This document shows, one piece after another, positions 3,918-28,654 of a DNA stretch of 45,042 nucleotides. The stretch is from Candidatus Omnitrophota bacterium. Its GTDB lineage: Bacteria; Omnitrophota; Gorgyraeia; JABMRN01; RBG-13-46-9. The stretch is taken from assembly GCA_030605095.1 (NCBI GenBank), contig JAUWBJ010000003.1, forward strand, positions 1 through 45,042. Reading direction: 5' to 3'. The position numbers and the translations under genes are program-made. Position 1 is the stretch's first letter, and each line of letters begins with the position of its first letter. The notes under the pieces are model-generated. The model worked only from the letters and a program-made list of their open reading frames with translations. It did not search any database and was not told the origin of the DNA.

Positions 3918-3969
3918 AGCTTAAACATCTTATCACCCCGAAACTGCCTTGTCAACCTTCGCATTTCGC

Positions 3970-3998
3970 TTGAAGAAAGCGCAGGCTTGTGGTATATT
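3970..3998 (+). promoter_or_regulatory. Sigma70-like promoter candidate (TTGAAG-17-TATATT with upstream TGG)
   Basis: -35 at 3970-3975 and -10 at 3993-3998 with a 17-nt spacer. Lies in the divergent gap between comF and the phosphate transporter. Confidence 0.4.
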
Positions 3999-4025
3999 GT
4001 GTGCCGATAGACAGAAAGAGAAATT

Positions 4026-4163
4026 ATGGGGCAAAAGAAGAGAACACAGATAAAATTCAAACAAAAAATAAAAAGAAGAAAAAGACGTCAGAGATTCTCA
4101 AAAAAGGGAAAAAATCCAGACGAGTATTTTTATAGCGGTGTCTATGTTTCACGGTCGTCATAA
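4026..4163 (+). CDS. Hypothetical 45-aa hyperbasic peptide
   Basis: ATG..TAA ORF below the track cutoff: MGQKKRTQIKFKQKIKRRKRRQRFSKKGKNPDEYFYSGVYVSRSS. Downstream of the promoter candidate, with a weak SD. Confidence 0.3.
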   Translation: MGQKKRTQIKFKQKIKRRKRRQRFSKKGKNPDEYFYSGVYVSRSS

Positions 4164-4169
4164 GGTCGT

Positions 4170-5294
4170 ATGAAACAAATCCTATCCAGAATTTTTAGAA
4201 TAATCAGCGTCTTATTTTTTCTTTATCTATTCTTTGTTAGCATAAGCTTGATGAGCCACGCTTTTAAGGGCTTCGGCAGCGGCTTTGCCGAGCGCCTTAT
4301 AACGACAACGGCCAACCCATTTGTCGGTTTATTCATAGGTATTTTAGCTACCAGCATTATTCAGAGCTCCGGCACCACGACATCCATGGTTGTGGTATTT
4401 GTAGCCTCGGGTGTTCTTTCGATAAGGTGCGCCATTCCTATTGTTATGGGCGCAAATATAGGGACAACCGTTACCTCTACGCTCGTTGCCCTTGGCCATA
4501 TTACGCGAAAAGAAGAATTTAAAAGGGCATTCAGTGGCTCTATCGTGCATGACCTCTTTAACATGTTAACAGTCATTATTCTTTTTCCGATAGAAATGTC
4601 CACTCACTATCTCGAAAAAGCCGGAATATTTTTGTCTTCTGTCTTTAACAATATGGGAGGAGTAGCGATTACAAGCCCCATAAAGTCTATTGTAAAGCCG
4701 GCCATAAATGCTATTGATAGTTTATTGAGAAATTATACATGTGTTTCAAATGTTGCCTTAAATATCATTCTTCTTGCCATAGCTCTGGCCTTGCTTTTTA
4801 TGTCTTTATACAATATTTCTATGGTGATGAGATCGTTAGTTATGAAAAAAGCGGATATAGTGTTTGATAAAGTTATTAGAAGAAGTGCCATACTTGCGAT
4901 GCTTATGGGGATGCTTTTTACAGCGATGGTGAGGTCGAGTTCCATTACTACAGCTATCCTTGTGCCTCTGGTTGCTGCGGGGGTACTGCAGTTAGAGCAC
5001 TCTTTTCCTATAGTCTTGGGGGCAAACATAGGCACGACGATTACTGCAATGCTCGCTGCCCTTACGGGCAATATTGCGGGTATAACTATTGCATTTGTTC
5101 ATCTGGTTTTTAATCTTACGGGGATTCTGATTATCTATCCCTTGAAATGGTTAAGAAAGGTTCCAATAGTGGTTGCACGTTTTATAGCCGAAAAATGTAC
5201 AAAACGCAGGATATTCGCCATTATTTATGTATTGGTTATATTCTATGCGTTGCCTATAGGTTTGATTCTGTTGTCAAGGTTTTTTAAAAGATAA
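4170..5294 (+). CDS. Na/Pi cotransporter family protein
   Basis: Multi-TM protein with the duplicated motif QSS(G/S)(T/I)TT..GANIGTT characteristic of NptA-type transporters. Confidence 0.85.
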   Translation: MKQILSRIFRIISVLFFLYLFFVSISLMSHAFKGFGSGFAERLITTTANPFVGLFIGILATSIIQSSGTTTSMVVVFVASGVLSIRCAIPIVMGANIGTTVTSTLVALGHITRKEEFKRAFSGSIVHDLFNMLTVIILFPIEMSTHYLEKAGIFLSSVFNNMGGVAITSPIKSIVKPAINAIDSLLRNYTCVSNVALNIILLAIALALLFMSLYNISMVMRSLVMKKADIVFDKVIRRSAILAMLMGMLFTAMVRSSSITTAILVPLVAAGVLQLEHSFPIVLGANIGTTITAMLAALTGNIAGITIAFVHLVFNLTGILIIYPLKWLRKVPIVVARFIAEKCTKRRIFAIIYVLVIFYALPIGLILLSRFFKR

Positions 5295-7355: not shown

Positions 7356-8435
7356 ATGAAGATTCTACACTTAATTCCCGCGCTGGAGACAGGCGGCGTG
7401 GAAACAGGCACAATTGATTTAGCGTTGTCACTGAAAAGATCAGGCCAAACCGTCGTCGTTATTTCTAACGGCGGAAGGCTCGTCGAAGATTTAGAAAATA
7501 ACAACATTCTTCATATTAAACTTCCCGTTCACAAAAAATCTCCGCTTGCGCTTTTACTTACGATGCGAGTAGCCTCTCTTATAAAGACACAAAGAATAGA
7601 CATCGTTCACGCTTCAAGCCGCGTTCCGGCCTGGATAGGGTTTTTAGCCTGCAAGTTGACAGGCACGCCATTTGTTACCAGTTGCCACGGCTTTTATTCC
7701 AGGCATTTATTTAGTTATGTTATGGGTTGGGGCAAGCTTGTAATGGTTATCTCAAAAAGCGTAGAAAAGAGAATGGCGGAAGATTTTAAGGTCCCGAAGG
7801 AAAAAATCCGGCTCGTATATAGAGGAGTTGATTTAACGAAATATCAATACTGTCCCGATAAGTACGATAGAGAAAAAGACTATTTTACGATTATAAATAT
7901 CGGCAGATTAACACCTATTAAAGGCCAGTATGAATTTATGAAGGCAATGAAGCACGTTATAAATAAAACAGAGCGCATAGAAATATGGATTGTAGGCGGC
8001 CTTCAAACAGGAAAAGCTCGTTATTTGGATATGTTGAAAGATTTGGCAAAAGAACTCGGGATAGAAAAACACGTTAAATTTCTTGGCGCAAGAAGCGATA
8101 TACCTGATTTATTAAAGAAAGCTGACTGTTTGGTGCTTTCGACAGAAGTTCCGGAGGGATTCGGGAGAACCGTAATAGAAGCAGGGGCCATAGGCACTGC
8201 CGTATGCGCATCAGAGGTGGGTGGCATAAAGGAGATTATAGATAACGGCGTATCAGGGTTACTTTTTCCTCCCGGCGATGAAACTGGAATGTCCGAGGCT
8301 GTCCTCAGAATGCTTGACGACGTCGAGCTTCGCAAGAGGTGCGCTAGAAACTTGCGAAAGAAAGTCGAGCAATTTTTTACTCTCGAGAAAATGGCAAAGG
8401 CGACTCTTTCTGTTTACAAGGAAGCGGTGAAGTAG
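7356..8435 (+). CDS. Glycosyltransferase family 4 protein
   Basis: GT-B fold features, including the E(G/A)FG..(I/V)EA motif (PEGFGRTVIEAGA). Confidence 0.75.
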   Translation: MKILHLIPALETGGVETGTIDLALSLKRSGQTVVVISNGGRLVEDLENNNILHIKLPVHKKSPLALLLTMRVASLIKTQRIDIVHASSRVPAWIGFLACKLTGTPFVTSCHGFYSRHLFSYVMGWGKLVMVISKSVEKRMAEDFKVPKEKIRLVYRGVDLTKYQYCPDKYDREKDYFTIINIGRLTPIKGQYEFMKAMKHVINKTERIEIWIVGGLQTGKARYLDMLKDLAKELGIEKHVKFLGARSDIPDLLKKADCLVLSTEVPEGFGRTVIEAGAIGTAVCASEVGGIKEIIDNGVSGLLFPPGDETGMSEAVLRMLDDVELRKRCARNLRKKVEQFFTLEKMAKATLSVYKEAVK

Positions 8436-9835: not shown

Positions 9836-10931
9836 GGTTAAGATAAACACGCTTGAAAGGCTTGCCGAGAAAGGACAGAGCCCCTGGTATGACAATATAG
9901 ACAGGCGGTTTATAAAAAACGGGCATCTCAAAGAATTATTTGATAATGGGATTTTAGGCGTTACCTCCAACCCGACAATCTTTGAAAAAGCCGTAGCGGG
10001 TTCCGATGAATATGATAGGGAAATAAAAGAACTTGCCAGACAGGGTAAAAATTCTCGTCAAATCTATGACGTTTTGACTGTAAAAGATGTATCTCTCGCC
10101 GCCGACCTATTAAGAAATACATACCAGAGTTCAAATCATCTCGACGGTTACGTCAGCATAGAAGTCTTGCCTGAATTCGCGCACAATCCCGAAAAAACGA
10201 TTGAAAGTGCGCGTGAAATTGCCGGTAGAATTGCCATGCCTAATATTATGATTAAGATTCCTGGAACTAAGGATGCCCCGGAAGCCATACGCGCATTGAT
10301 AAAAGAAGGAATAAATGTGAATGTAACGCTTTTATTTTCTGTCAGGCAATACGAAATTTGCAGAATGGCGTATATTGAAGGTTTGAAGGAAAGATTAAAA
10401 GAAGACAAGGATATTAAAAATATTTTTTCTGTAGCAAGTATTTTTGTAAGCCGCGTTGATACTAAGGTAGATAAAATTCTTGAAGGTATCGAGAACGAAG
10501 AATTGAAAGGCAAAATAGCCGTCGCTAACGCGAAAGTAATTTATCAAAGTTTTAAGGAGTTCTTTAGTAGCGAAGAATTTCGCCGGTTAGATTCAAAGGG
10601 CGCGAATGTCCAGCGCCCTCTCTGGGCATCGACGAGCACAAAAAATCCCGTTTATAGTGATGTAAAATACGTCGAAGAGCTTATCGGTTCACAAACCATA
10701 AATACAATACCGCCTCATACCATCAATGCTTTTCTTGACCACGGAAAGGTGGAATTAACGATTGAAAATCAACTCGACAAGGCAAAATCCTACCTCATCA
10801 GACTAAAGGCGCTTGGCATAGATATAGACGACGTCTGCCAGCAAATCCAGGATGCCGGCGTCAGGGCCTTCCAGGATTCCTTCGACAAACTAATCCTTTC
10901 CATCGAAAGGAAGCTGAATGAACCGGGTTGA
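9825..10931 (+). CDS. tal: Transaldolase (long form)
   Basis: QSPWYDNI, GVTSNPTIF and IKIPGT active-site region. Confidence 0.85.
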   Translation: MRTEVKINTLERLAEKGQSPWYDNIDRRFIKNGHLKELFDNGILGVTSNPTIFEKAVAGSDEYDREIKELARQGKNSRQIYDVLTVKDVSLAADLLRNTYQSSNHLDGYVSIEVLPEFAHNPEKTIESAREIAGRIAMPNIMIKIPGTKDAPEAIRALIKEGINVNVTLLFSVRQYEICRMAYIEGLKERLKEDKDIKNIFSVASIFVSRVDTKVDKILEGIENEELKGKIAVANAKVIYQSFKEFFSSEEFRRLDSKGANVQRPLWASTSTKNPVYSDVKYVEELIGSQTINTIPPHTINAFLDHGKVELTIENQLDKAKSYLIRLKALGIDIDDVCQQIQDAGVRAFQDSFDKLILSIERKLNEPG

Positions 10932-10960
10932 TACGTGAATTTACGCATCAACCCGGTTCA
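10919..10960 (+). promoter_or_regulatory. 14-bp perfect inverted repeat straddling the tal stop codon
   Basis: TGAACCGGGTTGAT-14 nt-ATCAACCCGGTTCA, followed by an A-run rather than a U-run. Function unknown. Confidence 0.4.
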
Positions 10961-20389: not shown

Positions 20390-22321
20390 ATGAGTGAGAA
20401 ACATATAGAACGTTCATACGACCCGGCAAGTCAAAAAATGATAAAGAAGGCCCAGGATGAGGATATAAAAATCGTCTGGGATAGGCATGATGCGATGCAG
20501 CCGCAGTGCGGTTTTGGTGAGCTTGGGATATGCTGCAAGATATGCAATATGGGGCCGTGCAGGATTGATCCCTTTGGAGAAGGACCGCAGGAGGGTGTGT
20601 GCGGGGCTTCAAAGGATACGATTGCGGCTCGGAATCTTGTAAGAATGATTGCCTCAGGCGCGGCGGCTCATTCGGACCATGGACGAGATATAGCGCACGC
20701 TTTACTTTCAGCAGCAAAAGGTGAAGCACACGATTATAAGCTAAAAGGCACAGACAAATTAAAAAGAGTAGCCGAAGTTTACGGTATAGATACTGCCGGT
20801 AAAAGTATTGAGAAGATTGGCGAGGAATTAGGCGAGAAGTGTCTGGCTGAATTCGGCCAGCAGCACGGTGAATTAAGACTTACCAGCCTTGCACCCAAAA
20901 AACGGCAGGCGCTCTGGAGAAAATTAGGTATTATACCTAGAGGCATAGACAGAGAAATCGTTGAGATAATGCATAGAACCCATATGGGAGTAGATAATGA
21001 TTATAAAAACATAATAAATCATGGAATAAGAGCTGCGCTTGGCGATGGCTGGGGTGGCTCGATGATAGCGACAGAGCTTTCTGATATTTTGTTTGGCTCA
21101 CCCGAGCCGATACGAGCAACGGTGAACTTAGGGGTTTTAAAAGAAGACCAGGTGAATATTGTTGTCCATGGTCACGAACCTACGCTTTCTGACGTCGTTG
21201 TTGATGCGGGAAAAGACCCGGAACTTTTGGCACTGGCCAAAAAATACGGGGCAAAAGGCATCAATATAATAGGTATGTGTTGCACAGCGAATGAGATATT
21301 GATGAGGCATGGTATTCCCTCAGCAGGTAATTTCCTGCAACAGGAATTGGCAATTTTAACTGGGTCGGTCGAACTTATGATGGTTGACGTGCAGTGCATA
21401 ATGCCTGCTCTTTCGAGCGTTGCGAACTGTTTCCACACGAAAATTGTTACCACTTCCCCCAAATGTAAATTCCCGGGGGTAGAGCATGTTGAATTTAAAG
21501 AAGAGAAAGCCCTTGAGATTGCCAAAGAAATTATCAAAAAAGGCGTGGAAAATTATAAGAATAGAGTTAAAAAACGTGTGGATATTCCAAAAGAGATAAA
21601 AGGACTGGTTGCAGGATTCACCACTGAAAACGCTTTTCACTTTTTAGGCGGCAAATATCGTTCTACTTATAGACCCCTTAATGATGCGATAATTTCCGGC
21701 AGGTTAAGAGGGGCTGCAGGTGTAGTCGGTTGCAACAATCCTAACATAAGGCATGACTGGGCACATGTTTCCATGGTTAAGGAGCTTATAAAGAACGATG
21801 TTTTAGTCGTGCAGACAGGTTGCTCCGCAATAGCATGCGCTAAAGAGGGATTAATGACTCCTGAGAGTGCTTATAAATTTGCCGGTCCGGGCCTTCGTGA
21901 GATTTGCGAGGCAGTAGGCATACCGCCGGTTTTACATGTTGGCTCGTGCGTTGACAACTCAAGAATTTTACTTATTCTTTCAGAAATGGTCAAAGAAGGC
22001 GGCTTAGGGGAAGACATAAGCGATTTACCTGCTGCAGGAGCTGCTCCTGAATGGATGAGCGAAAAAGCAATCTCTATCGGTTTTTATGTTGTAGCGAGCG
22101 GTGTATTTACGGTTTTTGGCACACCGCATCCGGTCTTAGGGAGTGAAAACGTTACAAAGTATATTACAAATGAACTTGAAGACATTGTGGGTGGCAAGTT
22201 TGCTTTTGAGGTTGATCCAATTAAAGCTGCGCATATGATGATTAGACACATTGATTTAAAAAGAAAAGCATTAAAGCTTGGACCTGCGATACATCAACAA
22301 AAGGTAGCGCTAAAGACGTGA
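20390..22321 (+). CDS. cooS: Anaerobic Ni-CO dehydrogenase catalytic subunit
   Basis: N-terminal CxFGxxGxCCxxCxxGPC cluster-B/D motif, the length, and the acs-operon context. Confidence 0.95.
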   Translation: MSEKHIERSYDPASQKMIKKAQDEDIKIVWDRHDAMQPQCGFGELGICCKICNMGPCRIDPFGEGPQEGVCGASKDTIAARNLVRMIASGAAAHSDHGRDIAHALLSAAKGEAHDYKLKGTDKLKRVAEVYGIDTAGKSIEKIGEELGEKCLAEFGQQHGELRLTSLAPKKRQALWRKLGIIPRGIDREIVEIMHRTHMGVDNDYKNIINHGIRAALGDGWGGSMIATELSDILFGSPEPIRATVNLGVLKEDQVNIVVHGHEPTLSDVVVDAGKDPELLALAKKYGAKGINIIGMCCTANEILMRHGIPSAGNFLQQELAILTGSVELMMVDVQCIMPALSSVANCFHTKIVTTSPKCKFPGVEHVEFKEEKALEIAKEIIKKGVENYKNRVKKRVDIPKEIKGLVAGFTTENAFHFLGGKYRSTYRPLNDAIISGRLRGAAGVVGCNNPNIRHDWAHVSMVKELIKNDVLVVQTGCSAIACAKEGLMTPESAYKFAGPGLREICEAVGIPPVLHVGSCVDNSRILLILSEMVKEGGLGEDISDLPAAGAAPEWMSEKAISIGFYVVASGVFTVFGTPHPVLGSENVTKYITNELEDIVGGKFAFEVDPIKAAHMMIRHIDLKRKALKLGPAIHQQKVALKT

Positions 22322-22824
22322 AGACCAAAGACCAAAAACCAAAGACCAAAGACATAAAAATATATTGCGATATTACCAAATGCGTTGGTTGCCGTTCCTG
22401 CGAGATAGCCTGCGCGGTCGAGCATTCTAAATCGAAAGATATTTTTTCGGCTGTTCGCGAAAAACCGTTACCAAAAAAGAGGGTAACGACAGAAAACATA
22501 GGTGCTAAAATTATTTCACTGCATTGTCAACACTGCGAAGATGCGCCGTGTATAAAGGCCTGCATGAGTGGCGCGTTATCAAAGGATGAAAAAACAGGCG
22601 CTACATTGCACGATAAGGAAAAGTGCGTTGGATGCTGGATGTGCGTCATGGTTTGTCCTTTTGGTGCGATAGTAAGAGATATTGAGAATCACATAGCGGT
22701 TAAATGCGACCTCTGCCCGGATAGGGATGAGGACTATGCCTGCGTTGAAGCATGTCCGACAGGGGCTTTGTTTACCGGCACTAAGGAAGAGTTTGAGAAG
22801 AAGATAAAAGGTCGGAAAAAGTGA
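22318..22824 (+). CDS. cooF: 4Fe-4S dicluster ferredoxin, CooF-like
   Basis: Multiple CxxCxxCxxxC(P) motifs. The GTG start overlaps the cooS stop as GTGA. The Lys-rich N-terminus is encoded by AAGACCA repeats. Confidence 0.8.
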   Translation: MKTKDQKPKTKDIKIYCDITKCVGCRSCEIACAVEHSKSKDIFSAVREKPLPKKRVTTENIGAKIISLHCQHCEDAPCIKACMSGALSKDEKTGATLHDKEKCVGCWMCVMVCPFGAIVRDIENHIAVKCDLCPDRDEDYACVEACPTGALFTGTKEEFEKKIKGRKK

Positions 22825-23157
22825 ACCCCGCCCTTCCTAAAGAAGCAAGGAAGGGCTGGGTGAACCCCGCCCTTCCTAAAAGAAGGAATTGGTATTATAT
22901 ATATTTACTAAGTAGTAAAATTAAACAATGGATTTATATAGGATGTACAAGTGATCTGAAGAAAAGATTAATAGAGCACCAACAAGGAAAACTATTTTCA
23001 ACAAAAAAAATGTTACCAATAGAATTGATATATTTTGAAGCCTACAGATCTAAAAAAGTAGCATTTGAAAGAGAAAAGGCTTTGAAAAAATATGGAAGTG
23101 GTTTAGCAAAGCTAAAGTCTAGAATTGGCATTATAAGCAAAGGAAGGGCGGGGTGAA
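22821..23157 (+). mobile_element. Palindrome-bounded insertion: a 39-bp ORF-less hairpin unit plus a 293-bp unit carrying a GIY-YIG ORF, each bounded by GTGAA
   Basis: GTGAA occurs at 22821, 22860 and 23153. The inverted termini are CCCCGCCCTTCC (22826-37, 22865-76) and GGAAGGGC(T/G)GG (22848-59, 23142-52). The interior is about 27% GC by hand count. Confidence 0.6.
22860..23156 (+). CDS. GIY-YIG nuclease family protein (small stand-alone URI domain)
   Basis: WYYIYLL..IYIGCTSDLKKRLIEHQQGK..E..A..REK.LK matches the GIY-YIG core. GTG 22860 has an AGGAAGG SD 5 nt upstream; GTG 22821 is an alternative start. Confidence 0.75.
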   Translation: MNPALPKRRNWYYIYLLSSKIKQWIYIGCTSDLKKRLIEHQQGKLFSTKKMLPIELIYFEAYRSKKVAFEREKALKKYGSGLAKLKSRIGIISKGRAG

Positions 23158-24442
23158 TTACGTAATAATAGGCGGGAGTGCAGCCGGTGTTACGGCTGCG
23201 GAAACAATACGGAAACAGGATAAAGAATCATCCGTAACGCTAATTTCGGATGAGGAGTTTGCGCTCTATTCGCGATGTCTTTTAACATATTTTATAGCGG
23301 GGACTATTAACGAGGATAAGCTTTATTTTAAAGACAAAAATTTTTATAAAGAAAATGACGTAAAAACTTATCTCGGCAAAAAGGCCGTTTCCATCGACCG
23401 GAAGAAAAAGAGCGTTTCTTTAGAGGGCGGAACAAAAATTTCATATGATAAACTTCTGATTGCAACAGGCGCTACACCTAAATCTGTTGATATTCCTGGC
23501 ATTGAAAAAAAAGGCGTATTTACGGTTAGAAAAATAGATGATGCCCGCGCAATAATAAATATGCTGGATAGCGTAAAAGAAATCGCAGTTTTAGGGGGCG
23601 GCCTGATAGGCCTCAGGGACGCGTACGCCTTAAGGCAGAGAGACAAGAAAGTAACCGTCATTGTAAAAAGCCCACAGGTTCTGTCGCAAATGGTAGATAT
23701 GGATGCCGCGCGGGTTATTGCTTCTATCTTAGAGAAAAACGGCATAAAAATTATGACTGGCGTGGCAGCAAAGGAAATTACAGGTAAAGGCTCTGTAGAG
23801 GGTATTTTACTGGATAACGGTGAACGCCTCGCCTGCCAGCTTGTTGTTATAGGTAAAGGTGTAAAGCCAAATACAGAGATTGCCTCGGTTGCCGGACTAA
23901 AGGTTGAAGACGGAATCGTGGTTAATGAATTTCTGCAAACATCCGATAAAGATATTTTTGCTGCGGGTGATGTTGCCGAGACTTACGATATCGCAAGGGA
24001 GTCCAAAAGGATAAATGCCCTGTGGCCCTGCGCCATTGAGCAGGGGGAAGTAGCTGCCTTAAATATGCTCGGCGAAAAGAAAACTTATGACGGTTCGCTG
24101 TCCATGAATTCCGTTGATTTTTTCGGCTTGGCGTCTATCTCGATGGGGATTACTAAGCCTAAAGAAGAGAAGAAATATGAGATAATTTCCAGGACAGGGG
24201 AGAATTCATACAAAAAATTCATTTTGAAGGATAACAGAATTGTCGGAATGGTTCTCGTAGGCGATATCAGGCCGGCAGGGGTAGTCAGCGCCCTTATAAA
24301 AAATAAGATCGATGTATCAAGCATAAAAGAAAAGATAGTCGATGATAATTTCAATTACGCGAAAATAATGCCGGTGGTTAAAGAATTCGGGGATAAGTTC
24401 AAGCAGGAAGAATTTAGAGATACAGTTTTAAGTTTTAAGTAA
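23153..24442 (+). CDS. FAD-dependent pyridine nucleotide-disulfide oxidoreductase (CooS/CooF-associated)
   Basis: Two Rossmann motifs, VIIGGSAAG and AVLGGGLIG, and the GD motif AAGDVAE. The GTG start overlaps the GIY-YIG stop. Confidence 0.85.
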   Translation: MNYVIIGGSAAGVTAAETIRKQDKESSVTLISDEEFALYSRCLLTYFIAGTINEDKLYFKDKNFYKENDVKTYLGKKAVSIDRKKKSVSLEGGTKISYDKLLIATGATPKSVDIPGIEKKGVFTVRKIDDARAIINMLDSVKEIAVLGGGLIGLRDAYALRQRDKKVTVIVKSPQVLSQMVDMDAARVIASILEKNGIKIMTGVAAKEITGKGSVEGILLDNGERLACQLVVIGKGVKPNTEIASVAGLKVEDGIVVNEFLQTSDKDIFAAGDVAETYDIARESKRINALWPCAIEQGEVAALNMLGEKKTYDGSLSMNSVDFFGLASISMGITKPKEEKKYEIISRTGENSYKKFILKDNRIVGMVLVGDIRPAGVVSALIKNKIDVSSIKEKIVDDNFNYAKIMPVVKEFGDKFKQEEFRDTVLSFK

Positions 24443-24458: not shown

Positions 24459-27143
24459 ATGTCGAAGATTGTAGCGAGCGCTGCCATAAGGGGTGCAAAG
24501 GCACTGGTAGCAGAAGCCGAGAAGCTTGTCAACAAGGCAATCGAAGAAAAAGGCAAGGATCAAAAGATAGAATTTCCTGAGACGGCATTTTTTCTTCCGA
24601 TGGCAAATGCCCTTTTAGGCGCTGAAGTGAAGACGCTGAAGGAGATAGAACCCGTGCTTAAAGAAGCGAAATCGCTTTTACACGATGAACCTACAAAGGA
24701 ACTTTGGCTTCCCTATTTAGGAGACGCGCTTGATTCAGGAATTGCCGCCCTTTTAGCGGAGGAGATTATCTGTGCTATGCGCTACCTAAGTGGCAAAGAG
24801 CCGCAGTCCGGCTGTAACGGTTTTTTCACGGATACAATACTTCGCACCCTCGGTATACAGCTCGTGGACGGAAGGATGCCGGGTTTCGCGGCGATATTGG
24901 GTGCGGCACCCGACAACAAAACAGCCGTGGAAATAGTGAGGGAATTCCAAAAAAGAAGCATAATGACCTTTGTCGGCTCAAGTTCGAACGGAAAAAGTAT
25001 TATAGACCAGCTGAAAGAAGAAAAAGTGGAAATGGGCTGGGATACATATATAGTTCCTTACGGAAGAGATACAATATCAGCCATATATCCTTTACACTGG
25101 GCCATAAGGGGTGCTCTTACATTCGGCGGTATAAAAGCAGGAAACGCGAAAGAATGTTTATTATATTGCAAAGAAAGGGTTTTTGCGTTCGGCCTTACAC
25201 TCGGCCCATTAGACGACATTAAATACGCCACAGGCGCCGGCGCGATAAATATGGGATTTCCCATTATTGCGGACACGGATATTCCTGAGATCAGACCGAC
25301 AGGTATTTGCACCTATGAGCACCTTGTGAAAGAATTTGACTATAAAAGGATTGTCCAGAAGTGCATTGAGGTAAGGGGCGTAAAGGTAAAAGTATCCAAG
25401 ATACCCATACCCGTTACTTATAGCGCTGCTTTTGAAGGCGAAAGGGTAAGGCGGGAACAGATGCATGTTCAGTTCGGCGGAAAATTCTCCTCTGCCTTTG
25501 AATTTGTCCGCTCAAAACCGCTTAATGAAGTTGAGGACGGGAAGATAGAGGTTGTCGGGCCGGAAATTGAGGACATGAAAGAGGGCGCGGCTTTCCCGCT
25601 CGGCATATTGGTAGAGGTTGCCGGAAGGAAAATGCAACACGATTTTGAACCCATACTTGAAAGGCAGCTACACGGCTTTCTAAACGAAGCGATGGGGATC
25701 TTCCATATGGGACAAAGAAATATGTGCTGGATGCGGATTTCAAAGGAAGCGCATAAGAAAGGTTTTAAGATAAAGCATTTCGGAACAATTATTCATGCCA
25801 GGTTCCACGATACATACGGAAAGATTGTAGATAAAGCACAAATTACTATCTTCACAAACCAGAAGGATGTGGATAAAATTGTGCCGGAGGCAATAAAGGT
25901 CTACGAAGAACGCGACGCTCGCCTCGCGGGTATGACTGACGAGAGCGTGGATACGTTTTATAGTTGTACGCTTTGCCAGTCGTTTGCCCCAAACCACGTC
26001 TGTATGGTAAAACCCGAACGTTCCGGACTTTGCGGCGCTTACTCTTGGCTTGATGCGAAGGCCTGTTACGAATTAAATCCGTCAGGGCCAAACCAGCCTG
26101 TTAAAAAAGGCGAAGCCCTTGATCCGGTTCGCGGTGAGTGGAAAGGCGTGAACGACTTTATTCATCAGAAATCCAACAAGACCTTAGAGAGATTTCACGG
26201 TTATTCGATTATGACATGGCCGGAAACGAGTTGCTGCGTTGGAGATACGGAGGTATTAATCGATAACAAAGTTGTGAAAATAGGCGAGTTTATCGACAAG
26301 CATAGAGGAGGAGAAGAATATACCAAATTTAAAGTCCTTACTTTAAATGGCGATAAGACTGTAAAAGAAAATATCGTTGCTATGCAAAAATTTCCTGCCC
26401 CTAAAGAATTGGTAAAAATTACGACAAGAACCGGTAAGGATCTTATATTAACAAAGGAACACAAAGTATTTCTTGATAGGTTTGGCTGCAGAGTAGGCCT
26501 TCGAGCCGATCATATAAAACAAGAGGATAGAGTTGTAGCCCTTAAAGAATCAAGGCGTAATGTACCAGTACTCAGAGAAAAAATAAACAATAGCAGGACT
26601 CTTACAATAGATACAGATTACTTTCTGGACATTGTTACTGACGTTAAAATAATTAAAAAGCATAAATTTGATTATGTGTATAATTTGACTCTTTCCGACA
26701 CACATAGTTATTTTGCTAACGGGATGCATATTGCAAATTGCGGATGTTTCGAATGTATAATTGCAATCTTACCCGAGGCAAACGGATTTATGGTTGTTAA
26801 CAGAGAATACTCCGGCTTTACGCCTGCCGGGATGAAGTTTTCAACCCTTGCCGGCTCTGTCGGAGGGGGCAACCAGACACCGGGATTTATGGGTGTGGGA
26901 AGACTCTATCTTGTAAGCAAGAAGTTTGTATCTGCCGATGGCGGAATAAAAAGGCTTGTGTGGATGCCGAAGGAACTCAAAGAGACACTCAGCGCTAAAT
27001 TAAAGAAAAGGTGCGAAGAAGAAGGCATACCGGATTTATTTGATAAAATTGCAGATGAAACCGTTGCGACTGAATCCGAACCACTCCTGAAATTTTTAAA
27101 GGAGAAAAAGCATCCTGCGCTTACTATGCCGCCACTTGTGTAA
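24459..27143 (+). CDS. acsB: CO-methylating acetyl-CoA synthase (A-cluster subunit), intein-containing precursor
   Basis: CTLCQSFAPNHVCMVKPERSGLC [4Fe-4S] motif and CGCFE Ni-Ni motif. It is 894 aa, or 725 aa without the insert. Confidence 0.95.
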   Translation: MSKIVASAAIRGAKALVAEAEKLVNKAIEEKGKDQKIEFPETAFFLPMANALLGAEVKTLKEIEPVLKEAKSLLHDEPTKELWLPYLGDALDSGIAALLAEEIICAMRYLSGKEPQSGCNGFFTDTILRTLGIQLVDGRMPGFAAILGAAPDNKTAVEIVREFQKRSIMTFVGSSSNGKSIIDQLKEEKVEMGWDTYIVPYGRDTISAIYPLHWAIRGALTFGGIKAGNAKECLLYCKERVFAFGLTLGPLDDIKYATGAGAINMGFPIIADTDIPEIRPTGICTYEHLVKEFDYKRIVQKCIEVRGVKVKVSKIPIPVTYSAAFEGERVRREQMHVQFGGKFSSAFEFVRSKPLNEVEDGKIEVVGPEIEDMKEGAAFPLGILVEVAGRKMQHDFEPILERQLHGFLNEAMGIFHMGQRNMCWMRISKEAHKKGFKIKHFGTIIHARFHDTYGKIVDKAQITIFTNQKDVDKIVPEAIKVYEERDARLAGMTDESVDTFYSCTLCQSFAPNHVCMVKPERSGLCGAYSWLDAKACYELNPSGPNQPVKKGEALDPVRGEWKGVNDFIHQKSNKTLERFHGYSIMTWPETSCCVGDTEVLIDNKVVKIGEFIDKHRGGEEYTKFKVLTLNGDKTVKENIVAMQKFPAPKELVKITTRTGKDLILTKEHKVFLDRFGCRVGLRADHIKQEDRVVALKESRRNVPVLREKINNSRTLTIDTDYFLDIVTDVKIIKKHKFDYVYNLTLSDTHSYFANGMHIANCGCFECIIAILPEANGFMVVNREYSGFTPAGMKFSTLAGSVGGGNQTPGFMGVGRLYLVSKKFVSADGGIKRLVWMPKELKETLSAKLKKRCEEEGIPDLFDKIADETVATESEPLLKFLKEKKHPALTMPPLV
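26232..26738 (+). other. Mini-intein (169 aa) within acsB
   Basis: CCVGDTEVL (block A), LTKEH (block B), VYNLTLSDTHSYFANG (block F), and MHIAN followed by Cys+1 (block G). About 34% GC versus about 52% in the flanking exteins, by hand count. Confidence 0.85.
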
Positions 27144-28495: not shown

Positions 28496-28539
28496 GGCCA
28501 TGACTTAGGTCGGCTGTTGCCGACCTAAGTCATATGGCC
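28496..28539 (+). terminator. Strong GC-rich hairpin 6 nt after the acsC stop (terminator or RNA-stability element)
   Basis: A 15-bp perfect stem (28500-28514 / 28519-28533), a TGTT loop, and a GGCC extension with a 2-nt bulge. The downstream T-tract is only weak. Confidence 0.45.
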
Positions 28540-28546
28540 GAATTTT

Positions 28547-28654
28547 ACCCAGCACTAATTTCTATACTATACTGTGAATTGTAGATAATGAGAATAATGC
28601 AGATTAAAAGCCCTAATGCTGTAGAAATGTTTTTATTAGAAATTAGTGCTGGGT
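28547..28654. repeat. 108-nt element with perfect 18-bp terminal inverted repeats
   Basis: ACCCAGCACTAATTTCTA (28547-64) and TAGAAATTAGTGCTGGGT (28637-54) enclose 72 AT-rich nt. Confidence 0.6.

Follow-up and report, generated by a model that had tools for sequence, protein, structure and literature searches.

The DNA analysed here is a 45,042-nt stretch of a Candidatus Omnitrophota genome (contig JAUWBJ010000003.1, positions 1 to 45,042 of the forward strand; hereafter the window). At positions 22821-23157, between the cooF gene and an oxidoreductase gene of a CODH/ACS cluster, it contains two tandem repeat-bounded units: a 39-bp hairpin without an open reading frame (ORF), followed by a full copy. 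We read these units as two copies of a minimal insertion element, in which the full copy carries the gene of an Ssn-type GIY-YIG nuclease in its loop; together with a model of movement that is inferred, this reading is assigned a probability of approximately 0.7. The element lies within the 4-nt GTGA overlap at which cooF stops and the oxidoreductase gene starts, and its insertion there is proven because real empty sites exist in related genomes.

Occupied and empty states of the cooF/oxidoreductase junction

The orthologous junction was read on contigs fetched with orthologs of the oxidoreductase. It was observed as follows (percentages are amino acid identities to the proteins of the window):
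L082, complete 1.43-Mb Omnitrophota genome, oxidoreductase 84%: empty, GGCCGGAAAAAGTGAATTACGTAATAATAGG
L084, oxidoreductase 86%: empty, GGTCGGAAAAGGTGAATTACG
L085, oxidoreductase 78%: empty, ATGA overlap
L081, nuclease 97%: full unit only, without the 39-bp unit
L083, oxidoreductase 86%: 107-bp ORF-less remnant with both ends kept
Window: 39-bp hairpin and full unit

Thus, empty, full, remnant and hairpin-plus-full junctions represent four states of one site. An initial annotation, which was made from the letters of the window without database searches, had reconstructed the empty junction, and the sequence that it predicted, …GGAAAAAGTGAATTACG…, is present in two close relatives, L082 and L084. 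At shared sites, the element is also more similar between genomes than the DNA around it. Element and flank identities are 98.0% and 83.7% between the window and L081 (p = 4e-10), 90.6% and about 69% between L004 and L007, 89.7% and 84.4% between L012 and L004, and 83.9% and about 79% between L010 and L016. These values are compatible either with re-invasion or exchange between lineages or with a slower evolution of the element.

The features of the locus are as follows:
20390-22321: CooS gene (ORF list and Pfam)
22318-22824, + strand: CooF-like 4Fe-4S gene (ORF list; Pfam Fer4_11, E = 2.6e-19)
22822-22824: TGA stop codon of cooF, inside the left GTGA
22822-22825, + strand: TGAA flank repeat, copy 1, the target copy (repeat analysis and concordance of flanks in the family)
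22826-22860, + strand: ORF-less hairpin unit proper, 35 nt, with arms CCCCGCCCTTCC / GGAAGGGCTGGG and an 11-nt loop
22848-22854, + strand: AGGAAGG resembling a Shine-Dalgarno (SD) box, located in the short unit's right arm and 5 nt upstream of the GTG at 22860 (sequence reading)
22860-23156, + strand: single-domain GIY-YIG nuclease ORF, 98 amino acids (Pfam PF01541, E = 8e-13)
22861-22864, + strand: TGAA flank repeat, copy 2
22864-22877, + strand: left terminal inverted repeat, ACCCCGCCCTTCCT, translated as N-P-A-L-P
22865-23153, + strand: full element proper, 289 nt, from CCCCGCCCTTCC to GGAAGGGCGGGG
23141-23154, + strand: right terminal inverted repeat, AGGAAGGGCGGGGT, holding an SD-like AGGAAGG (23141-23147) 5 nt before the GTG at 23153
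23153-24442, + strand: FAD/NAD(P) oxidoreductase gene of the pyridine-nucleotide-disulphide type (ORF list, Pfam), followed by an ACS subunit gene
23154-23157, + strand: TGAA flank repeat, copy 3, whose TGA (23154-23156) is the stop codon of the nuclease

A repeat finder recovered two direct repeats, 22821-22841 with 22860-22880 (21/21) and 22847-22864 with 23140-23157 (17/18). The 14-nt inverted arms of the left type (22825-22838 and 22864-22877) and the right type (22848-22861 and 23141-23154) are 93-100% complementary, and the terminal inverted repeats of the full element pair at 14/14 positions. In the 45-kb window, the 12-mer CCCCGCCCTTCC has three exact copies and one copy with one mismatch, all at this locus, and the hairpin pattern has no match in 100 shuffles. 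The initial annotation had placed GTGAA at 22821, 22860 and 23153, delimiting units of 39 and 293 bp, which agrees base for base; the repeated flank itself, however, is the 4-bp TGAR rather than GTGAA, and the hairpin, drawn there at 22821-22859, is refined to a unit proper of 22826-22860. Its description of both units as bounded by one inverted repeat corresponds to the 14-nt arms ACCCCGCCCTTCCT/AGGAAGGGCGGGGT, and its hand count of about 27% GC for the interior to a computed 27.0%, compared with 42.3% for the whole window. The 39-bp unit consists, as it had stated, of the joined ends of the long unit (approximately 25 nt from the left and 14 nt from the right); relative to that unit, it has two length changes of a single A each and one G>T. 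Its status as an ORF-less derivative is backed by the wider family, including the L083 remnant and the L081 full unit that lacks it.

The 39-bp unit is predicted to fold as single-stranded DNA (ssDNA) at -13.4 kcal/mol (z = -5.4), and the predicted RNA fold of the region is likewise stabler than that of shuffled sequence (z = -5.8). RNA structure was considered as the main explanation of the locus and rejected: the fold is stable, yet it leaves the empty sites unexplained. An Rfam scan of the region returned sub-threshold chance matches only.

G22821 together with the copy-1 TGAA forms a GTG that starts a read-through ORF, and this alternative start would extend the nuclease to 111 amino acids. 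The G of the GTG start of the oxidoreductase is the final base of the element, and the orthologs at empty sites start at the same GTGAATTAC.

Several further features of the window lie outside this junction. The ACS/CODH subunit gene at 24459-27143 (894 amino acids) contains a mini-intein of approximately 150 amino acids (Pfam Intein_splicing, residues 604-756) without a homing-endonuclease domain, and its orthologs in L082 (1275 amino acids) and L085 (1172 amino acids) have inteins that keep LAGLIDADG domains; this mini-intein is a second selfish element of the operon at another stage of decay. At 28547-28654, a perfect inverted repeat of 18 nt, ACCCAGCACTAATTTCTA / TAGAAATTAGTGCTGGGT, encloses an intergenic unit of 108 bp, which has ends that resemble the ACCCCG type described below, and is preceded by a hairpin with a 15-bp stem at 28500-28533; the unit may be a short element of another repeat family. 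A 42-nt near-perfect palindrome at 10919-10960 (TGAACCGGGTTGATACGTGAA/TTTACGCATCAACCCGGTTCA, with TGAA/TTCA ends), located between two genes and followed by an A run, is probably a terminator. An exact-protein look-up of CooF returned no record.

Full and ORF-less copies at start codons

The initial annotation had proposed a search for further copies of the termini. Approximately 19 distinct full-copy sites and more than 80 ORF-less sites were identified in other genomes and metagenomes, which refines the original account in that short copies are far commoner than full copies. The family was found mainly in Omnitrophota and Planctomycetota. The 19 close loci of a scan with one genome per species come from Omnitrophota, Planctomycetota (Scalindua, Phycisphaerae and Pirellulales bins), Edwardsbacteria and a Cloacimonadota bin, and the protein homologs are mostly labelled Omnitrophota. 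Every full unit starts with RTGA[AG][CT]CCCGCCC… and ends with …GGGCGGG[GA]TGA, and the terminal inverted repeats are conserved throughout the 18 full-copy loci whose two ends can be read. All close homologs begin with MNPALP or MSPALP and end with GRAG*, sequences that result from translation of the inverted repeats; in several, the N-terminus is doubled, which corresponds to a short unit upstream, as in the window.

A long ORF starts from the right RTG in 18 of the 19 full-copy loci with readable ends. It has 94-695 codons in 17 of them and leaves the contig after 50 codons in L007; the exception, L009, has a degraded left flank and a short right-end ORF. In 13/18 full-copy loci, the left TGA closes an ORF of 65-796 codons. 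By their translated ends, the neighbouring genes look unrelated between sites, and we take them to resemble rpmF/plsX, Mrp antiporter subunits, rfbC/rfbA, alaS/hisD, mcsA/mcsB and a glycosyltransferase gene. At the argD/argF and pilM/pilN junctions, 4-nt overlaps are present on both sides according to the gene calls of the sources and Pfam. Proteins with 60-79% identity occupy approximately 19 unrelated sites. Decay was also observed: the L018 ORF has an in-frame stop, some homologs are truncated, and L083 holds a remnant. Apparent multiple sites of the same nuclease in one genome (P0040 and P0003) were dismissed: the eight to nine contigs represent one locus that was sampled repeatedly. No match was found among phage records (tblastn) or viral contigs (pattern scan), which provides no evidence for a viral vector.

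The ORF-less copies span 35-110 bp across the family. They were retrieved from metagenomes with a pattern of left arm, 1-31 nt, right arm and TGA, which matched at least 120 loci; the following counts refer to the matches listed. Although it formed no part of the pattern, [AGT]TGA[AG][CT] is the left flank of 83 of 106 unique short units. A long ORF starts from the right RTG in 72 of the 83 flanked units, whereas a gene also ends in the left TGA in only 27. The constant feature is thus the start codon, and the stop/start overlaps, such as the one that the initial annotation described at this locus, are a subset. Secondary units that were found by their arms alone lie at RTGAR gene starts in four of six cases, and two are flanked by TAA(A). 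The family copies are nearly all on start codons of unrelated genes, often at a 4-nt RTGA overlap and always in one orientation.

The flanks and ends of 108 units define the element. The fourth flank base is concordant in 104 of these units (TGAA/TGAA in 90, TGAG/TGAG in 14, discordant in 4; Fisher p = 7e-14), and the base before TGAR is not repeated: in 75 units it is A to the left, from the host ATG, and G to the right, where it is the element's last base. Covariation is seen in the outermost arm pair (C-G 86, T-A 14, mismatched 8). The simplest description is yCCCGCCC…GGGCGGGx, with perfect inverted ends and 4-bp TGAR flanking. With TGAR-flanked ends, the nuclease ORF has neither a start nor a stop codon of its own: it starts with the host R plus the TG of the left TGAR and stops at the TGA of the right TGAR. 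The displaced host gene obtains a start composed of x plus TG, either GTG or ATG, and an AGGAAGG 5 nt upstream. The initial annotation had noted that the right end donates AGGAAGG and GTG, and this sequence feature recurs across the family; as a feature of the sequence, the donation of an SD box and a start codon is clear. Upstream of RTGAR, no special motif was found, only a generic SD-like G enrichment at -11 to -7.

The right end, as read from its bases, recreates an SD-RTGAR site, which would explain the tandem arrays. Such arrays are present in the window (hairpin and full copy), L001 (156-nt remnant and full copy), L004 (two full copies), L018 and L219 (three units). In L004, the two full elements at 836-1391 are identical at 278/278 positions and lie at an Mrp-antiporter junction where L007 has one copy; the pair could be a very recent duplication, or possibly an assembly artefact. 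The three-unit array of L219 (1380-1821) occupies a site with a single unit in L002. A palindrome type of 24-26 nt, CCCRGCCCTTGCGCGCAAGGGCYGGG, recurs in L219, L001 (3866-3893) and L160 (9898-9921), and a related copy lies in frame inside the nuclease ORF of L219 (…SWIYPAPARRSWIY…), with TGGATTTAT duplicated.

Among the matches listed, the short units are 50-62 nt long (mode 56-57), and their orientation is fixed: an inner G-rich segment resembling the right arm is oriented 43 to 0, and the interior is purine-rich in 96%. Short units at different genes have a common interior sequence, which suggests, as far as sequence can tell, that they are a propagating lineage rather than independent deletions. 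A simple deletion origin of the common 50-60-nt units was rejected, given that the G-rich inner segment GGGCTGGGG is missing from the 5´ part of full copies; this segment may derive from the 3´ coding end. Selection for an in-frame mini-ORF ending at the right TGA was not supported either (length modulo 3 of 30/36/17 among the matches listed). In 79 non-tandem short units of the list, translation from the left start terminates at the right TGA in 22, continues in frame into the host gene in 22, stops inside the unit in 27 and enters the host gene out of frame in only 8. Two to three short units within 10 kb are found on contigs L112, L127, L161 and L204. Approximately 12 matches on human-gut contigs lack the RTGAR left flank (L086, L103, L136, L142, L144 and others). 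A 32-nt gut hairpin, CCCGCCCCTCCGGTRAAGGAAGGGCGGGGTGA, recurs with identical flanks, sometimes twice per contig, and is probably an unrelated terminator-like repeat.

More distant homologs have other ends. In 15 of 54, the gene is bracketed by different inverted repeats with scores well above controls, many of which start with ACCCCG, and protein clades and repeat sequences co-vary. Patescibacterial homologs at L034 ~4001-4306 and L028 ~3960-4290 have perfect 20-nt inverted repeats, ACCCCGCCGTTGGGAAGCCC (Yanofskybacteria) and ACCCCGCACCTATTGAACTT (Portnoybacteria), each with TTGA on both sides. Ends of the TTCACCCCGTKAGATA type occur in Verrucomicrobiota, Patescibacteria, Planctomycetota and a gammaproteobacterial bin. 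Three TTCACCCCGTKAGATA units lie inside YhcG/DUF1016 PDDEXK nuclease genes (L058 2866-4470, L041 2947-4545 and L039 3793-4542; Pfam YhcG_C and DUF1016_N). The host frame remains open through the element of approximately 290 nt, in a frame that differs from that of the nuclease ORF, so that the insertion would be translated as part of the host protein.

The nuclease and its relation to known systems

The ORF had been described in the initial annotation as a stand-alone GIY-YIG nuclease of 98 amino acids, and a hidden Markov model check agrees (Pfam PF01541, E = 8e-13). The catalytic residues are intact, and Y15, Y26-I27-G28, R36, H40 and E72 are invariant in the family, in keeping with the motifs, the conserved Arg and the metal-binding Glu that mark the GIY-YIG superfamily on its beta-beta-alpha-alpha-beta-alpha core. 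The AlphaFold2 (AF2) model (pLDDT 83) comprises strands at residues 12-19, 25-30 and 54-62 and helices at 33-41, 46-49, 65-77 and 79-89, flanked by low-confidence disordered tails (residues 1-10 and 90-98) that are the translated repeats. Neither Pfam nor the AF2 model shows a second domain or a DNA-binding domain. The top Foldseek matches are Slx1 (7cq2, TM 0.58), BH0048, UvrC and I-TevI, and the best matches among solved structures are UPF0213 (1zg2, E = 1.5e-8; BH0048 and EF2693) and Slx1. The family profile gives 51.4 and 47.8 bits to the Ssn homologs of Azospirillum and Rhizobium that are flanked by SRM repeats, 37.1 and 29.8 bits to UPF0213 and 26.8 bits to SLX1; with the NCBIfam model for group I intron endonucleases, the protein reaches only 21 bits, below the cutoff of 56. 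By its predicted fold, the protein is a bare GIY-YIG core, and the profile scores indicate indirectly that it may belong to the CDD cd10448 clade of Ssn proteins.

Ssn proteins are described as single-domain GIY-YIG proteins of ~94 amino acids (CDD cd10448) that act as site-specific ssDNA endonucleases, whose cut falls a few nucleotides 5´ of the NTS/SRM hairpin repeat that they bind (Chenal et al., Nat Commun 2025, PMC11893778). These repeats flank ssnA and number hundreds of copies, and the authors regard NTS-ssnA-NTS as IS-like and REP/RAYT-like (PMC11893778). The pairing of a nuclease with its own palindromes, with REP/RAYT-like logic, that the initial annotation proposed was right and has a published precedent.

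The element shares with Ssn a single-domain GIY-YIG protein of ~94-100 amino acids, a gene bracketed by its own hairpin repeats, many ORF-less copies elsewhere and oriented repeats. Bracketing by hairpin-forming inverted repeats of 20-50 nt with many ORF-less copies, as in Ssn systems, is present here. The stem core GTCATCCCCGCG of an Azospirillum SRM agrees by eye with GTGAACCCCGCC of the element at 9/12 positions, and the family profile scores the SRM-flanked homologs above UPF0213 and SLX1. In contrast, the repeats of the element fail the published SRM motif, HGTCWYN(0-2)YYVSBRHN(0-5)WNVSBRGN(0-2)RNCYNB (PMC11893778). The same expression finds 4-5 SRMs around Azospirillum and Rhizobium plasmid homologs, and tblastn of plasmids returned distant matches only (34-37% identity), which are the SRM-flanked Ssn references. 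The layout differs as well: each end of the element is half a hairpin with the gene in the loop, whereas complete hairpins with spacers flank the gene in L221; the element has no spacers and borrows its start and stop codons from its flanks. It lies on start codons with TGAR repeats, its insertion is demonstrated by empty sites, its hosts are Omnitrophota and Planctomycetota, and it is known here from sequence alone. Because the profile favours the SRM-flanked homologs and the stem cores are alike, but the SRM motif fails, the element is filed, on these comparisons, as Ssn-like with a different cognate repeat and layout. The L221 cassette itself (1379-1887, Azospirillum lipoferum plasmid) is a canonical SRM-ssnA-SRM unit with four CGTCATCCCCGCGAAGGCGGGGATCCAG hairpins between sufB and sufC, so classical Ssn cassettes also occur inside operons. 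A Sedimentisphaerales contig with the element (L016) has SRM-like hairpins (TGTCATCCCCGCGAAAGCGGGAATCCAT and an inverted partner) at 7717-7790, 3.4 kb away from it, and no ssnA gene was found beside them in the available stretch.

Other systems resemble the element in part. REP/RAYT (REPIN) and IS200/IS605 systems also combine one small nuclease gene with palindromic repeats and many ORF-less copies, and action on ssDNA hairpins is likely, by analogy, to be common to them and the element. Oriented insertion beside a fixed tetranucleotide is shared with IS200/IS605, for example IS608, which inserts beside TTAC. Their enzymes, however, are HUH/Y1 transposases with covalent intermediates, whereas the enzyme of the element is a GIY-YIG hydrolase, and Pfam finds no HUH/Y1 transposase in the element, whose only ORF is the GIY-YIG one. 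IS200/IS605 leaves no flank repeat, and REPs are extragenic, unlike the element on its start codons. Bacterial MITEs (Correia/NEMIS, RUP, Rickettsia palindromic elements) are similarly short, with inverted-repeat ends, short flank repeats and frequent positions at gene boundaries, and some supply expression signals or read through, as do the 22/79 short units that fuse in frame. The autonomous partners of MITEs are IS elements with DDE transposases, whereas the sole candidate here is the 98-amino-acid nuclease; the target, a start codon, also differs. The T4 Seg proteins and I-TevI share the GIY-YIG catalytic domain and, as free-standing homing endonucleases, a selfish gene between conserved operon genes; unlike the element, they have DNA-binding modules, one long site and homology-directed repair, and lack terminal repeats, flank repeats and ORF-less derivatives. 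UPF0213 (BH0048, EF2693) and SLX1 share the minimal GIY-YIG core and are the best solved-structure matches, but they score below the SRM-flanked Ssn homologs and have no associated repeats described. A 2006 survey of GIY-YIG proteins regarded prokaryotic Slx1-like stand-alone domains as vertically inherited repair proteins (PMC1564403).

Movement, rival explanations and meaning

The role of the nuclease in the movement of the element is a model, which would proceed as follows. By analogy with Ssn biochemistry (PMC11893778), the nuclease would bind the ssDNA hairpin of its own terminal repeats and nick a few nucleotides 5´ of it, at the TGAR boundary. Judging from the anatomy alone, the nick, together with host replication or repair and the 4-nt TGAR microhomology, would allow the unit to be copied or moved to other (SD)-RTGAR sites, and each insertion would remake an RTGAR site at its right end and permit tandem arrays. 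We give about even odds to the broader proposal that elements of ~290 bp are autonomous, are mobilised by an Ssn-type GIY-YIG ssDNA nuclease (its catalytic class is not known to power transposition of DNA in prokaryotes), home to translation starts, swap SD boxes and start codons and seed non-autonomous copies of 50 bp.

Several points weigh against the reading of the locus as an element moved by its nuclease. GIY-YIG enzymes only hydrolyse DNA, and we know of no joining activity among them, so that joining must fall to the host. They characteristically leave 2-nt 3´ overhangs (PMC2761285, abstract), compared with the 4 nt that a TGAR duplication suggests. No full nuclease gene was present within 709 kb around the 120 short-unit loci listed, which keeps mobilisation in trans conjectural, and among the loci and contigs covered no genome showed two full copies at different sites. 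With the published SRM motif, the window gives no match, and the 124 kb surrounding the 19 full copies give a single unrelated one. The pattern used for short units itself demanded a TGA at the right end. Because the upstream profile is that of a generic SD only, the start-codon position could also reflect selection on the survival of insertions rather than targeting. The data come from metagenome-assembled genomes and metagenome contigs, in which binning errors may underlie some of the taxon labels.

We consider it unlikely that the hairpins are the primary repeat family, spread by the host or by another enzyme, and that the GIY-YIG protein is a resident partner that cuts ssDNA repeats for a host function, such as the control of transformation or recombination proposed for Neisseria SsnA, with its gene merely within one repeat. 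The excess of short over full units, with none of the latter beside the listed short-unit matches in 709 kb, and the apparent single copy of the full unit per genome fit such a partnership, as does the fact that the sole function tested for an Ssn protein is the restriction of incoming ssDNA (PMC11893778). However, presence and absence at orthologous sites are seen for the full unit too, which is found at approximately 19 unrelated junctions and has TGAR flanks like those of the short units. Protein clades co-vary with repeat sequences, the element is conserved above its flanks, and pseudogenised or remnant copies (L018, L083) are unexpected for a gene that benefits the host.

A classical free-standing homing endonuclease would invade the same junction only, through break repair from flanking homology, with the inverted repeats as expression or insulation signals. 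The greater similarity of the element than of its flanks at shared sites (98 vs 84%, 91 vs 69%) agrees with homing, and so does the intergenic position within operons, as for the phage seg and mob genes (PMC2988022). We nevertheless regard it as very improbable. The protein, with 98 amino acids, has no DNA-binding domain; proteins 60-79% identical lie at approximately 19 unrelated sites; and homing does not account for the TGAR repeats, for the tandem arrays or for the ORF-less copies found at more than 80 further sites. Hardly any weight falls on an old resident gene with conserved regulatory hairpins that act in mRNA processing or translational coupling, with nothing mobile. Although the arms covary like a stem and the RNA fold is stable, exact empty sites exist in close and more distant relatives, the occupied sites are unrelated to one another, the interior GC of 27% departs from the 42% of the window, and no Rfam match was found. 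An insertion element whose loop encodes its nuclease remains our preferred reading.

The combination of a small GIY-YIG nuclease and cognate hairpin repeats was already described in 2025 as Ssn/SRM, and the available passages of that paper report no empty sites, flank repeats or targets and leave the mobility of the repeat-gene-repeat unit and the spread of the hairpins unsettled (PMC11893778). Our literature search found no description of the terminal-repeat layout, of start-codon targeting, of empty sites or of such a unit as an insertion. New here are the evidence that shows insertion directly, the flank repeat, a target at start codons and stop/start overlaps, the trading of translation signals and the additional host phyla. 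With exact empty sites, a flank repeat of 4 bp, one constant orientation, an RTGAR target at start codons and decay products, this locus and its family make the mobility hypothesis testable with a 290-bp construct and one protein of 98 amino acids. Gene callers extend or mis-start genes at these sites, producing MNPALP N-termini, GTG starts supplied by the element and N-terminal fusions of 18 amino acids. The enzyme could bring a new hairpin specificity to the proposed ssDNA toolbox.

For its hosts, the element resembles a parasite of low cost, which borrows start and stop signals and gives back a Shine-Dalgarno box and a start codon; it can reside inside tightly coupled operons, such as the CODH/ACS cluster here, and probably does so without polar effects. 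Related units with other ends of the ACCCCG type extend to Patescibacteria and Verrucomicrobiota, some of them in frame inside YhcG nuclease genes. If true, mobility driven by a GIY-YIG enzyme would explain the multiplication of Ssn-associated hairpin repeats.

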